Both the position numbers and the translations under genes were made by a program. From Neisseriaceae bacterium (lineage in GTDB: Bacteria > Pseudomonadota > Gammaproteobacteria > Burkholderiales > Chromobacteriaceae), in the NCBI GenBank assembly GCA_027484385.1, contig JAIXTB010000133.1, positions 714-64,713 on the forward strand: a stretch of 64,000 nt of DNA, written 5' to 3'. The notes under the pieces are model-generated. The model worked only from the letters and a program-made list of their open reading frames with translations, had not been told where the DNA came from and made no database searches. Shown piece after piece: positions 33,346 to 54,649 of the stretch; positions within the stretch are counted from its first letter, which is position 1; every line of letters starts with the position of its first letter.

Positions 33346-33810
33346 TCAGCACTTATCAACAGGCTGTGGATAAAAACCGGGGTGGCTATCGGGTATCAGC
33401 ATGGCGGGCAGCTGGCTCAGGTAAAAGTCTATCGGCCCTGCACTACCGATCATGGCGTAAGCGTAACCACGCTGGTGTAGCGCATGCAGGCTGGCCAGCA
33501 GCAAAATACGGCCAAATCCTTGACCTTGATGGCTTTTCTTTACCCCTGTCGGCCCGAAAAATCCCCGCGCTGTCACGTCATAGCAGGCAAAACCCAGTAG
33601 CTCGCCACCCCGCTGCAATACCCAGGCGGTAGGCGGCATACTGCGAAATGCCGTATCGAATTCATCGGCCCAGCCATCAGAAAACTCACGGCTTATCCAC
33701 ATGCGCATGGCGCTACGCTCGTGTGGCAGAGGGTGGCGCAATACGACGCCGTCGGGTACGGCAGGGCAGGGTGGCAGCTCATAAAGCTTGACCAGAATAT
33801 CGGCAGGCAT
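33346..33810 (-). CDS. GNAT-family N-acetyltransferase
   Basis: GFACYD...FFGPTGV..SHQGQGFGR.LL acetyl-CoA motif. Confidence 0.85.
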   Translation of the reverse strand: MPADILVKLYELPPCPAVPDGVVLRHPLPHERSAMRMWISREFSDGWADEFDTAFRSMPPTAWVLQRGGELLGFACYDVTARGFFGPTGVKKSHQGQGFGRILLLASLHALHQRGYAYAMIGSAGPIDFYLSQLPAMLIPDSHPGFYPQPVDKC

Positions 33811-46072: not shown

Positions 46073-46594
46073 ATGGATACCCCGAACACCCCCGACGCCG
46101 TGGACGCCATCCGCGCACAGTGGCAGCGCGAACGCCCCGACCTGGACACCCGCCACATGGCCATCATCGGCCGCCTGGGCCGCTGCAGCATCCAGCTGCA
46201 AAAACGGTTGAATGACACCTTTGGCCAGTACGGCATCAGCAACTGGGAATTCGACGTGCTGGCCACGCTGCGCCGCAGCGGCACGCCGTATTGCCTGGCA
46301 CCCACCGCGCTGTTTTCCAGCCTGATGCTGTCGTCCGGCACCATGACGCGCCAGCTGCAGCTGCTGGCCGAGCGCGGCCTGGTGTGCCGTCTGCCCAACC
46401 CCGACGACGCGCGCAGCCTGCTGGTGCAGCTCACCCCGCAGGGGCTGGATCTGGTGAACGAGGTAGTGGGCGCGCATGTGGATAACATGGCGCGCATCCT
46501 GGCACCGCTGGACGCCGCACAGCTGGATGCGCTGGACGCGTCGATGAGCGCGCTGCTGGCCACGCTGGAACCCGCCGCGAAAGCGGGGCGCTGA
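46073..46594 (+). CDS. pecS: PecS/UrtR-type MarR regulator
   Basis: VD.I..QW..ERPDLD and EFDVLATLRRSG.P motifs of the urate-responsive MarR subfamily. Confidence 0.8.
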   Translation: MDTPNTPDAVDAIRAQWQRERPDLDTRHMAIIGRLGRCSIQLQKRLNDTFGQYGISNWEFDVLATLRRSGTPYCLAPTALFSSLMLSSGTMTRQLQLLAERGLVCRLPNPDDARSLLVQLTPQGLDLVNEVVGAHVDNMARILAPLDAAQLDALDASMSALLATLEPAAKAGR

Positions 46595-51000: not shown

Positions 51001-52013
51001 GGGGTATCTCCTGCGGTGGTAGCGGGGTGGTAGTGCTGTTCCAGGGTGGCGTGGCCATGCGCTACATGCAGCGTGGCCCAGGCGCCGTTCATCAGGGTCC
51101 ATTGCGGTGGTACATGGCCGATGTCGGCATCCAGTACCAGCGGGCAGGGCAGGCCGTCCAGCGCTTGCATGACGGCTTCTTCGTACTGCAGGTCGCCCGG
51201 CTGCGCGGCCTCGGGGCCGCTGCTGCGCCCCAGTATCAGCCCGGCCAGGCTATCGAACGCCCCGGCCAGGCGCATGGCGGTCAGGGCGCGGGCGAGCTCG
51301 CACGGGGCCAGCTCGCAGTTTTCCAGGTACAGCAGCACGGGTTGGCCGCGCCAGGCTTGCAGGTCGAAGTATGGCGTGGTGGCCAGGCGCGACAGCGTAT
51401 CCAGGCAGCCACCGATCAACCGGCCGGCCATGCTGGCCTGTGCAGCCCCTGCCACACGCACGCGGCTGTTTTTAGTTACACCGGGGTCGCCAAACGGCCA
51501 AAAGTGCGTGAAGGCCTGCTGGCGAGGCGGCAAACCGTGCTGCCAGCTGTGCCACAGCGGCTGCATTTCGCTTTGGCGGGCCGGGTGGCTGATATCAAAC
51601 ACGTTCGGGCTGTGCAGCGTGGCCCAGCCGGCGCGCAGGGTAAACGGTACCGCCAGCGTGGACACATCAGAAAAGCCGCACAGCCATTTGGGCGGCAATG
51701 CGGCCAACCTTGGCCAGTCCAGCCCGGCCAGCAGCTGCATGGCCAGCTCGCCACCCCAGGGCGGCAAAATAGCCTTGATCTCCGGGTCGTACAGAAAACC
51801 GTTGAGCTCTGCCAGCCGGGTAGCGGCACTGGCACTGGCGTTTTTTTCTTGCCGGCGCAGGGTGTCGCCCTCCACCACCTGGTAGCCGGCCGCACGCAGG
51901 GCGGCAATAGAAGCGTCCAGGCGGGCGTGCATCACCTCGGGGACACCGGAGGACACCGCGCACAGCGCCAGCGTGTCACCGGGCTGCAATGGGGCAGGAA
52001 AGCGCAAGTTCAT
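50997..52013 (-). CDS. S66-family LD-carboxypeptidase (MccF-like)
   Basis: GFSDVS (Ser), LYLENCE (Glu), DIGH (His) triad; PPWGGE. Confidence 0.85.
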
Positions 52014-52158
52014 GGCAGGGGCAGCGGGTTAGGGCCCCCCATTACAGCAGCAATTCTCATTCATGACAAAAGCTTGGCGTGCCGTGCTTATCGAAATCTG
52101 ACAGCTAAAACACCAGCCCGGCGAATGTCGTGCCAGCCAGGCTGCTGGTCTGGCCAGT

Positions 52159-52331
52159 TGTGGATAAACCGGGCCTGGTTGTTTATGGCGCTGAAATCTT
52201 GTTTAAAAACAGCAGCTTGGTTGGCCAAATCTGTTTACCCACAGGCATGGCCTCATAGCGCCAAGCTTGCCACCTGCTGCTTTTACACACGCGCTATGGC
52301 AAAAAACGGCTGCTTTAGCCGTTTATCCACA
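52159..52331. promoter_or_regulatory. DnaA-box group left of the glycosyltransferase gene
   Basis: Perfect TTATCCACA at 52159-52167 (minus) and 52323-52331 (plus); one-mismatch TTACCCACA at 52235. Confidence 0.65.
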
Positions 52332-52344
52332 GCCAACAGCTCAT

Positions 52345-53103
52345 CTAGCGGGTTTTCCCCAGGCGGTGCAGCTCGATCAGCTTGGCGTATTTGATATAGC
52401 TGTTAAAGCAGCCAATGCTGATGTGCACCAGCCCCGGCAAACCATCGCGAAAGCCCTGTCGCACCAGGTAAAACTTGATAAATCGCGTCAGCGGGCTGAA
52501 CACCAGCTTGGCCACACCACACTTTTTGCCACGCTGGTACAGCGCATCGGCCTGCAAGCTGGTGTAGCGGTTCTGTTTTGTCAGGTAGAGCGCAATGTCT
52601 TCGCCAGACTCGTGCATCAGGTCGCCTGCCAGCGTGCCAACCTGGCCATCGGTCTGTACATACTCGTGTACCACGTCATCCGACCAGCGGGCGTGCTGGC
52701 GGTGAAACAGGCGCAGGCTGTAATCCGGGTAGCCTTCGCCAAATTTCAGAAAACGCCCCATGAACTTGTTGCTACGGGCAAAACGCCAGGCATAGCCGCG
52801 TGGTTTTTTAAGCAAGTTCATGATTTCATGGCGTAATTTTTCAGATAGCCATTCGTCGGCATCCAGACATAACACCCAGTCGTGGCTGGCCTGTGCCACG
52901 GCAAACTGCTTCTGCGGGCCAAAACCCAGCCAGTCCTGGTGGATAACTTTTGCCTTATAGGCAGAAGCTATTGCCAATGTCCTGTCCGTACTTCCCGAAT
53001 CCACCACCACGATCTCGTCGGCAAAAGCACAGCTTTGCAGACATTTTTCCAGCTGGTTTTCTGCATTTTTGGTGATAAGCACCACGCTTAGCGCTTCAGA
53101 CAT
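52345..53103 (-). CDS. GT2 LPS core glycosyltransferase (KdtX/WaaE-like)
   Basis: VVDSGSTD.T, W.GFG.QKQFA, LDADE, H..V.E motifs. Confidence 0.88.
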   Translation of the reverse strand: MSEALSVVLITKNAENQLEKCLQSCAFADEIVVVDSGSTDRTLAIASAYKAKVIHQDWLGFGPQKQFAVAQASHDWVLCLDADEWLSEKLRHEIMNLLKKPRGYAWRFARSNKFMGRFLKFGEGYPDYSLRLFHRQHARWSDDVVHEYVQTDGQVGTLAGDLMHESGEDIALYLTKQNRYTSLQADALYQRGKKCGVAKLVFSPLTRFIKFYLVRQGFRDGLPGLVHISIGCFNSYIKYAKLIELHRLGKTR

Positions 53104-53109
53104 ACTTTC

Positions 53110-53689
53110 TAGACTGTCCAGTAATTAAATTGATAAGGGCTGATGAAGGACATCATCGGCTGTGGATAAGCCTGTTTTCCTGTTTTTTTTCAAACGCTTG
53201 CGCTACATGAACAGCTGTGCTTGTCTGGCCTGTTTTGTGGTGCAAGCTTTGTGGATAAATTGGCGCTTATGTGATTAACCCGGTTTGTCCACACGCCTAA
53301 GCCTGCTTTTACCTGCTGCCTGTGCATCAAGTGTGCCATGACGGCTGGTCTGCAGCGAAGCGTATTGCGTGAGCCACCCGGTTTTGACTTTCTGCAGACC
53401 GCTGTTTTTTGTTGCCGCATTGGCTAGCCGTTTCGCACCTCACGCTTTCATTGTTTTCACATTAGTTATTTGAAGACAATGATATACAAGACCATTTGCT
53501 GTGGATAAGTATAAAAAACAACTTTCTTTCAAGGTGTTAACATGTGTGTGGCTACCCTATTAACCCCGTCTGCGTTGACGGGAGCCTTTGTGGATAACTA
53601 TGACCTTTCTTATCCACAGCGCTTTATCCACATTCGGGTCGCCGCGATTTTACTTGGTTAACCACAGGGGCAGCCGTAAAATTCCGCGC
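53110..53689. other. Candidate replication origin (oriC): DnaA-box cluster and AT-rich tract
   Basis: Perfect DnaA boxes at 53161, 53250, 53500, 53589 (minus) and 53610, 53624 (plus); near matches at 53285 and 53658; 53461-53520 is about 27% GC. Confidence 0.7.
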
Positions 53690-54649
53690 ATGAAAAATGT
53701 CCTCCTGCTGCGCACATCATCGATGGGCGACCTTATCCACACCTGGCCGGCACTCACCGACCTGGCACGACACCAGCCCGATACCCGCATCACCTGGCTG
53801 GCCGAAGAAGCCTTTGTGGATATCCCCGGCCTGCACCCGCAAGTACAGGCCACGCTGCCCATTGCCTGGCGCCGCTGGCGCAAGCATTTGCTCGCGCGCG
53901 ATACCTGGCAGCAGATGGCGGCACTGAAAGCATCATTACAAAGCACGCGCTGGGATCTGGTGCTGGACGCACAAGGCCTGTTGAAAAGTGCGCTGCCGGG
54001 CTGGCTGGCCAACGGCCCGCTGGCCGGCTACGACGCCGCCAGCATCCGTGAACCGTTGGCCGCACGTTTTTATCAGCGCCACTACACCGTCAGCCGCCAG
54101 CTGTCAGCCATCGAGCGCAACCGCCGCCTGTTTGCCGCAGCTTTCGGCTATGAAGTAAGCGGCGCGCCGGTGTTTGGCATCCGCGCCGGTGCCCGCCCGG
54201 GCTGGCTGCCCGCCGGGCACTACGCCGTGTTGCTGCACGCCACCAGTCGCGACAGCAAGCTGTGGCCCGAGCCGCACTGGCTGGCACTGGCGGCCGAGCT
54301 GGCCGCACAAGGGCTGTATGCAGTACTGCCGTGGGGCAATGCGGTGGAGCAAGCGCGGGCAGAGCGCTTGGCCGCCGCCATGCCGGGTGCGCTGGTGGCA
54401 CCGCGCATGCCGCTGCGCGATGCAGCAGCGCTGCTGGGCCACGCCGCTGCCGTGGTGGGGGTGGATACCGGCCTGACCCATCTGGCCAACGCGCTGGATG
54501 TGCCATTGGTGGCGATCTATACCGATACCGACCCGGCGCTCACCGGCGTAATAGAAACCACGCGTGCGGCCAACATTGGCCAGGCTGGGCAGGTACCGCC
54601 GGTAGGCGCGGTGCTGGCGCTGCTGGCCCGCGTGCGGGGGGCGGCCTGA
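53690..54649 (+). CDS. waaC: Lipopolysaccharide heptosyltransferase I
   Basis: RTSSMGDLIH, DAQGLLKSA, VGVDTGLTHLA. Confidence 0.9.
   Translation: MKNVLLLRTSSMGDLIHTWPALTDLARHQPDTRITWLAEEAFVDIPGLHPQVQATLPIAWRRWRKHLLARDTWQQMAALKASLQSTRWDLVLDAQGLLKSALPGWLANGPLAGYDAASIREPLAARFYQRHYTVSRQLSAIERNRRLFAAAFGYEVSGAPVFGIRAGARPGWLPAGHYAVLLHATSRDSKLWPEPHWLALAAELAAQGLYAVLPWGNAVEQARAERLAAAMPGALVAPRMPLRDAAALLGHAAAVVGVDTGLTHLANALDVPLVAIYTDTDPALTGVIETTRAANIGQAGQVPPVGAVLALLARVRGAA

Follow-up and report, generated by a model that had tools for sequence, protein, structure and literature searches.

Does the chromosome of this bacterium start its replication beside waaC, in a non-coding gap between two divergently transcribed genes and far from dnaA? 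The question arises from a stretch of 64,000 nucleotides (hereafter the window), in which a sequence-only reading had pointed out a group of DnaA boxes and proposed a chromosomal origin. The window belongs to contig C310 in a draft assembly of 334 contigs (3.47 Mb, 98.7% complete). The host genome belongs to Vogesella: its WaaC protein shares 97% identity with the one of Vogesella mureinivorans strain 389 and 98% with the one encoded by a MAG from a pond. The present analysis indicates that the gap 53104-53689 is very probably the DnaA-dependent oriC of this Vogesella genome, and the layout of this predicted origin is conserved across Chromobacteriaceae-like genera. The genes and boxes of the locus are the following:

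52159-52331: auxiliary boxes past the glycosyltransferase gene, two perfect (52159, minus strand; 52323, plus strand) and one with one mismatch (TTACCCACA, 52235, plus strand)
52345-53103, minus strand: family-2 glycosyltransferase gene (PF00535, 75.2 bits), divergent from waaC, conserved left neighbour of the putative origin
53104-53689, no strand: putative oriC core, a non-coding gap of 586 bp that carries six perfect DnaA boxes and two with one mismatch
53285-53293, plus strand: one-mismatch box TTGTCCACA
53658-53666, plus strand: one-mismatch box TTAACCACA
53690-54649, plus strand: waaC, LPS heptosyltransferase I (TIGR02193, 377.6 bits compared to a cut-off of 185.3)
53733-53741: seventh perfect box, inside the 5' end of waaC, followed by a one-mismatch box at 53815-53823 that likewise lies in the first 45 codons
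54649-55896, plus strand: waaA/kdtA, Kdo transferase (NF004386, 581.8 bits compared to a cut-off of 524), whose start overlaps the stop of waaC (TGATG)

The six perfect TTATCCACA boxes and the two one-mismatch boxes initially reported in the gap are all present and span positions 53161-53666. The perfect ones begin at 53161, 53250, 53500 and 53589 on the minus strand and at 53610 and 53624 on the plus strand. It had also been estimated that well under one box would occur by chance in 64 kb, and this holds: 0.22 perfect boxes are expected in the window compared to 12 found, a number that none of 100 shuffles of the window reached. Boxes with at most one mismatch are likewise in excess (23 compared to 5.0 expected). 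The whole assembly carries 39 perfect boxes, including the 12 located on the contig of the window. When the assembly was scanned by sliding segments of 600 bp (two points for a perfect box, one for a one-mismatch box), the waaC gap scored 16 and the runner-up anywhere in the 3.47-Mb draft scored 5. This gap is the only dense cluster of the assembly, all other places having at most two perfect boxes per 600 bp.

As previously noticed, dnaA, gidA and parB are absent from the window; dnaA was found on contigs C49 and C122, and gidA and parB on contig C57. The rpmH-dnaA gap carries a single perfect box and contig C57 carries none, so that the classical origin neighbourhoods are empty. DnaA itself is encoded by the genome (TIGR00362, 378.6 bits), its gene being split over the ends of two contigs (C49:1-696 and C122:12879-13598), with the proline/alanine-rich low-complexity linker of DnaA near the break. 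The genome also encodes Hda, which is its third match to the DnaA family, and IHF alpha.

Besides the waaC gap, several other groups of boxes were observed in this genome and in others of the order. A GNAT acetyltransferase gene (33346-33810), about 20 kb to the left of the putative origin, contains two perfect boxes in opposite orientation (33365 and 33693) and a near-box (33353). This pair is kept in Vogesella G003 (2,658,205 and 2,658,533) and could be either a datA/DARS-like accessory site or a coincidence. A lone perfect box at 46477-46485, 7 kb to the left of the putative origin, has an equivalent in G003 at 2,647,648. The genome of Chromobacterium sp. CV08 (G031) carries pairs of perfect boxes exactly 29 bp apart at 109,440/109,469 and 186,314/186,343, with further perfect boxes at 265,461-265,656 (a double pair, 27 kb from oriC) and at -117,579/-117,477; these pairs could represent either a repeat element or sites of the DARS/datA type. 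Other genomes of the order have extreme arrays of boxes: a locus with 32% GC (L212, G095:C6:53130-56261) has 13 perfect boxes, mostly in 11-bp tandem repeats, and a locus with 44% GC that carries the waaC-linked origin (L197, G128:C77:2376-5508) has 14.

The boxes of the gap are arranged, together with AT-rich tracts and IHF-like sites, in two units:

53098-53293, plus strand: module A, with an AT-rich tract, a purine tract, three boxes and an IHF-like site
53300-53400, no strand: insert of about 85-100 bp separating the two modules, specific to the V. mureinivorans/urethralis group
53441-53499, plus strand: preferred candidate for the DNA-unwinding element, where the DNA of the gap is least stable
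53500-53666, plus strand: module B, with box 53500-53508, the IHF-like site TTTCAAGGTGTTA (53527-53539) and box 53589-53597

Module A consists successively of an AT-rich tract (53098-53137), a purine tract GAT GAA (53141-53146), box 53161-53169, the IHF-like site TTTCAAACGCTTG (53188-53200), box 53250-53258 and the one-mismatch box 53285-53293 in opposite orientation. Module B is preceded by its own AT-rich tract (53441-53499) and continues, after box 53589-53597, with two boxes in opposite orientation (53610-53618 and 53624-53632) and the one-mismatch box 53658-53666; boxes 53610 and 53658 have no counterpart in module A. Counted from the first box, the IHF-like site (+27) and the following boxes (+89 and +124) have the same offsets in both modules. 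Furthermore, modules A and B were both found in all 14 genomes of a cross-genus alignment (alignment A1, about ten genera). After masking of the boxes, their likeness still exceeds that of shuffled sequences in 10 of these 14 genomes (z from 3 to 6), the genome of the window having a z of 1.7. Judged by these comparisons, the gap is made of two homologous modules. Their spacing is 339 bp in the window genome compared to 244-260 bp in eleven genomes outside the V. mureinivorans/urethralis clade, and columns 330-400 of alignment A1, which correspond to the insert, are gaps in 11 of the 14 genomes. The insert therefore stretches the distance between the modules from about 250 to 339 bp, which implies that this distance is only loosely constrained.

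The tract of about 27% GC previously pointed out at 53461-53520 is confirmed (16 G or C in 60 positions, i.e., 26.7%, for a window average of about 64%), and the slightly wider segment 53450-53549 has 29% GC. Among the 40-mers of the gap, stability is lowest for 53447-53486 (-43.6 kcal/mol), 53504-53543 and 53098-53137 (-44.7 kcal/mol). Since 40-mers of the window have a mean stability of -62.0 kcal/mol (sd 4.4), these AT-rich tracts are about 4 sd less stable than the average. The two modules have similar stabilities, and neither is consistently the less stable across genera. Four A-centred triplets (GAA GAC AAT GAT) occupy positions 53472-53483, with 16 nt between the last one and box 53500, and this block of purine triplets is conserved across genera in alignment A1. 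Both modules carry TTTCAAnnnnTTR at 27 bp from their first box, a motif that differs at one position from the IHF core consensus WATCARnnnnTTR and whose TCA...TT(G/A) core is conserved in alignment A1. We infer the unwinding elements, the IHF sites and the trios at the level of motifs.

The tandem layout of two modules with a constant geometry adds a modest descriptive novelty. How it arose can be proposed with reserve. A complete unit (AT-rich tract, box, IHF site, box and inverted box, with the 0/+27/+89/+124 geometry) might have been duplicated in tandem long ago in Chromobacteriaceae and the sister family, giving an origin with two potential unwinding elements plus accessory boxes across the glycosyltransferase gene; we consider this scenario rather unlikely. 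If it is true, both modules might open or load the helicase, or one might regulate the other, and this would be a two-DUE architecture, undescribed for model origins.

The comparison with related genomes revealed that the boxes are much better conserved than the gap that carries them. The full gap is 82-89% identical in five Vogesella genomes and 70% identical in a sixth one, and in eleven further matching relatives it can be aligned only in part, mostly over the approximately 100 bp proximal to waaC. Perfect boxes upstream of waaC were counted in 80 loci from relatives. Every locus of Vogesella, Crenobacter, Pseudogulbenkiania, Aquitalea, Gulbenkiania, Chromobacterium, Paludibacterium, Rivihabitans, Craterilacuibacter and Laribacter carries three to nine of them. 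Their offsets from waaC recur at about -440, -360, -190, -101, -66 and +43 and are conserved in 48 loci; the +43 box, which is inside waaC, is kept in most genera. Of the 31 waaC loci belonging to Methylophilaceae, Rhodocyclaceae, Cupriavidus and other groups, 29 lack perfect boxes over the scanned region, and the two remaining ones have one each, inside the start of waaC. The mean column identity of alignment A1 is 57% and its boxes are invariant. Apart from the boxes, the invariant or nearly invariant parts comprise a pair of purine-rich blocks, a pair of TCA...TT(G/A) blocks and the promoter region of waaC, the spacers being scrambled. As read from this alignment, the pattern of conservation is that of a protein-binding array under selection and not that of a gene or an RNA. 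An Rfam scan of 51500-54200 gave zero matches, so no structured RNA accounts for the conservation.

A signature of three boxes was also searched, with at most two mismatches, in 301 genomes of the order. It matched 19 genomes, and the reversed pattern used as a control matched none of the 301. The signature occurs twice per genome and always beside waaC in the six sampled members of the family and in most of one sister family; four other families have it in a few genomes, as a single copy away from waaC. A glycosyltransferase gene adjoins the modules in 10 of 12 loci (f1/f59).

The auxiliary boxes beyond this gene raise the possibility that the origin extends further to the left. Helicobacter pylori and Bacillus subtilis have split origins, in which the clusters of boxes are separated by dnaA. 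Likewise, the boxes at 52159-52331 could be a required second sub-origin, the whole unit then measuring about 1.6 kb and including a gene. Two perfect boxes and a near-box are indeed grouped in the next gap leftward (52014-52344, 331 bp), and in most genera the interval from about -1.3 to -1.8 kb contains at least one perfect box, generally one or two. However, Aquitalea and Gulbenkiania have no perfect box at this auxiliary position, and Crenobacter, JH1-16 and the Laribacter MAG keep both modules while the alignment reveals no glycosyltransferase-like sequence to the left of their origin. Moreover, the segment 52014-52344 has no AT-rich element comparable to that of the core, the intervening gene encodes a glycosyltransferase and not DnaA, and the core gap already contains two complete modules. 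We therefore regard a bipartite origin as unlikely, the core gap being the preferred origin.

The strand composition bears more directly on the site where replication starts. Since the genome of the window is a 334-contig draft, the skew of the homologous locus was read in four complete relatives that carry the cluster. In Chromobacterium sp. CV08 (NZ_CP150453.1), which offers the best resolution of the four, the cumulative curve reaches its minimum at 237,940, with the cluster at 238,041-238,532 and dnaA at 22-1398, so that the minimum is about 100 bp away from the cluster and 238 kb away from dnaA. Over a 600-kb span of this genome, the skew is negative from -200 kb through dnaA to 238 kb and then becomes positive, the best step change-point being at 238-240 kb. 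Vogesella G003 has its minimum at 2,625,454, its cluster at 2,636,710-2,638,284 and dnaA at 2,556,045; in Vogesella G001, these positions are 1,134,881, 1,148,015-1,149,370 and 1,072,199, respectively. In both Vogesella genomes, the minimum is located 12-13 kb from the cluster, on the side of waaA, and 60-80 kb from dnaA. For G018, which belongs to a different genus, these two distances are 25 kb and 143 kb, respectively. The expectation that the skew minimum would be found near the cluster and not near dnaA is thus borne out in the four complete relatives, with distances of about 100 bp to 25 kb to the homologous cluster compared to 60-238 kb to dnaA. The minima of Vogesella and G018 do not coincide with the cluster because a few genes beside waaA blur the curve, and the same blur corresponds to the near-zero skew at 54-64 kb of the window. 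In the window itself, the skew is negative to the left of the cluster and about zero or slightly negative over the 10 kb to its right; the earlier caution that spot counts of base composition were not decisive was therefore right.

Gene orientation adds a further indication. Ribosomal RNA operons are almost always co-directional with replication. In G003, an rRNA operon is located between dnaA and the cluster (2.600-2.602 Mb, minus strand) and is co-directional only if the origin is at the cluster, which speaks against an origin at dnaA. The dnaA gene is head-on to a fork coming from the cluster in G003 and co-directional with it in G001 and G018; this difference in orientation implies that local inversions occurred. 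The bias of genes between strands, estimated from crude GC3-filtered ORFs in the four relatives, was weak and inconsistent and was discarded.

The right end of the gap also carries signals for the expression of waaC:

53654-53682, plus strand: putative waaC promoter read from the sequence (TTGGTT, 17 nt, TAAAAT), overlapping box 53658

The ATG of waaC follows the -10 element of this promoter after 7 nt, which suggests that the waaC mRNA may be leaderless. The promoter block (TTGGTTAACCACAG...TACAAT) is nearly invariant in alignment A1, its conserved form being TTGGTT-17-TA(A/C)AAT, and its spacer is itself the DnaA box TTAACCACA. A scan for consensus promoters and terminators found nothing above shuffle expectation and did not call this putative promoter. 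The occupancy by DnaA and the transcription of waaC are probably coupled.

Such an overlap is also what could be found at a site that binds DnaA for another purpose. The cluster could be a datA/DARS-like titration or reactivation site or a DnaA-controlled promoter region of waaC and the glycosyltransferase gene, replication starting elsewhere, e.g., in the rpmH-dnaA region. In Escherichia coli, datA likewise combines several DnaA boxes with an IHF site, and datA/DARS are clusters with an IHF site located away from dnaA. Besides box 53658 in the putative promoter, box 53733 is inside waaC, the skew minima of Vogesella are displaced from the cluster, and a second cluster could be hidden in the gaps of the 334-contig draft. 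However, no other locus of the 98.7%-complete assembly has more than two perfect boxes in 600 bp, dnaA having one and gidA/parB none. The skew of CV08 flips about 100 bp from the cluster and stays negative through dnaA, 238 kb away, and the orientation of the rRNA operon of G003 contradicts an origin at dnaA. Furthermore, the tracts adjoining the cluster are AT-rich, with a stability about 4 sd below the average of the window. The datA/DARS sites of E. coli lie off the minimum of the skew, are devoid of an unwinding element and occur in addition to a stronger cluster at oriC, whereas the Vogesella gap is the sole strong cluster and is at or near the switch of the skew. Every sequence-based test that was run favours oriC over a datA/DARS-like site, and we consider the latter quite improbable. 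Finally, the probability that the boxes are a product of chance or of a dispersed repeat and are unrelated to DnaA is negligible and this explanation was ruled out, since 0 of 100 shuffles reach the observed count, the boxes are conserved columns amid diverged spacers in alignment A1, the reversed pattern matches 0 of 301 genomes compared to 19 for the true one, and Rfam is empty.

An origin beside waaC, as initially proposed, is therefore upheld by the uniqueness of the cluster, the footprinted boxes and the skew of the relatives. A cluster of boxes above chance at a single locus, an AT-rich element, a skew minimum in relatives, conserved boxes and an encoded DnaA are all found for this gap. 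Our search of the literature on oriC in Chromobacterium, Neisseria and Betaproteobacteria found no experimental mapping of an origin.

A mechanism of initiation can be proposed from this anatomy. DnaA-ATP would fill the oppositely oriented boxes of the two tandem modules, and IHF would bend the DNA at TTTCAAnnnnTTR, 27 bp past a module's first box. The oligomer of DnaA would then open the adjacent AT-rich tract with its A-centred triplets, most likely 53441-53499 or alternatively 53098-53137, and DnaB would be loaded, leading to bidirectional replication. The divergent transcription of the glycosyltransferase gene and waaC would probably couple the activity of the origin and its occupancy by DnaA to both genes. 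Control would be exerted by an Hda-type inactivation and not by Dam/SeqA sequestration. No GATC was found in 53015-53953 (940 bp around the putative origin); about 2.5 would be expected there at the rate of the window, so that this absence alone is not significant. Over the whole window, GATC is in excess (171 compared to 100 expected, a count reached by 0 of 100 shuffles). A search of the 98.7%-complete genome for SeqA (PF03925) gave no match. The absence of both GATC at the origin and SeqA argues that there is no Dam/SeqA sequestration.

The oriC of E. coli, located between gidA and mioC, is also unlinked from dnaA; it carries in order a DUE, the R1 box and an IHF site and is flanked by outward transcription. 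The predicted Vogesella origin shares with it the absence of linkage to dnaA, an AT-rich element followed by a box oriented as TGTGGATAA (like R1), a candidate IHF-type site just past this box, then boxes in opposite orientation, and outward transcription of the flanking genes. It differs from it by the absence of GATC and of GATC-containing 13-mers, by SeqA not being found, by its neighbours (a glycosyltransferase gene and waaC instead of gidA and mioC, gidA being on contig C57) and by the presence of the putative DUE-box-IHF-box-box unit twice in tandem. By its motifs, the predicted Vogesella origin is of the standard DnaA-box/DUE type, outside the Dam/SeqA-controlled enterobacterial type.

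In contrast, the likeness to the basal unwinding system, which consists of a DnaA box and DnaA-trios (PMC8287927, PMC6669920), is partial. The published search pattern (a consensus box separated by no more than 16 bp from three or more A-centred triplets; PMC8287927) formally matches to the left of box 53500 (four triplets, 16 nt), with a degenerate motif of atypical sequence and polarity. The triplets of Vogesella read 5'-GA(A/T)-3' compared to the preferred 3'-GAT-5', the assignment of strand and polarity being a reconstruction. Unlike in this system, neither a tandem pair of boxes nor a GC cluster is found beside the Vogesella triplets.

Several observations in other genera point in the same direction. 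Base 1 of the genome of Neisseria meningitidis MC58 is said to lie in the origin. In this strain, rfaC (NMB2156) and kdtA (NMB0014) are numbered on either side of base 1 (PMC5383966, PMC5910500), and in strain 8013 base 1 is 'within the putative origin' (PMC2784325). The sequence-only reading had tentatively placed the meningococcal origin near kdtA/waaA. This placement is only partly corroborated by the papers: the numbering of rfaC and kdtA in MC58 and the position of base 1 in 8013 agree with it, waaA being about 14 genes from waaC in Neisseria whereas the two genes overlap in Vogesella. The published gene numbering suggests the same linkage of the origin to waaC in this sister family. For Laribacter hongkongensis, Ori-Finder predicted an 'oriC containing eight 9-bp DnaA boxes' (PMC3135505), and the waaC locus of the Laribacter MAG (L108) carries eight perfect boxes and both modules. 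This predicted oriC is probably of the same type as the waaC-linked site, the locus being matched by box count alone since the paper gives neither coordinates nor neighbours.

Overall, the start of replication of Vogesella and of its family would be fixed beside waaC, where it would be overlooked by the usual annotation practice of rotating chromosomes to dnaA; in CV08, the predicted origin and dnaA are 238 kb apart. Ori-Finder-type tools are expected to predict the waaC-linked origin in complete genomes. The comparative set gathered here, with its invariant boxes, fixed spacing, two modules and lack of Dam/SeqA, could be used to test which features of DnaA-dependent origins are essential. The location of the origin also bears on the analyses of skew, replichores and growth rate (peak-to-trough) of these common freshwater bacteria.
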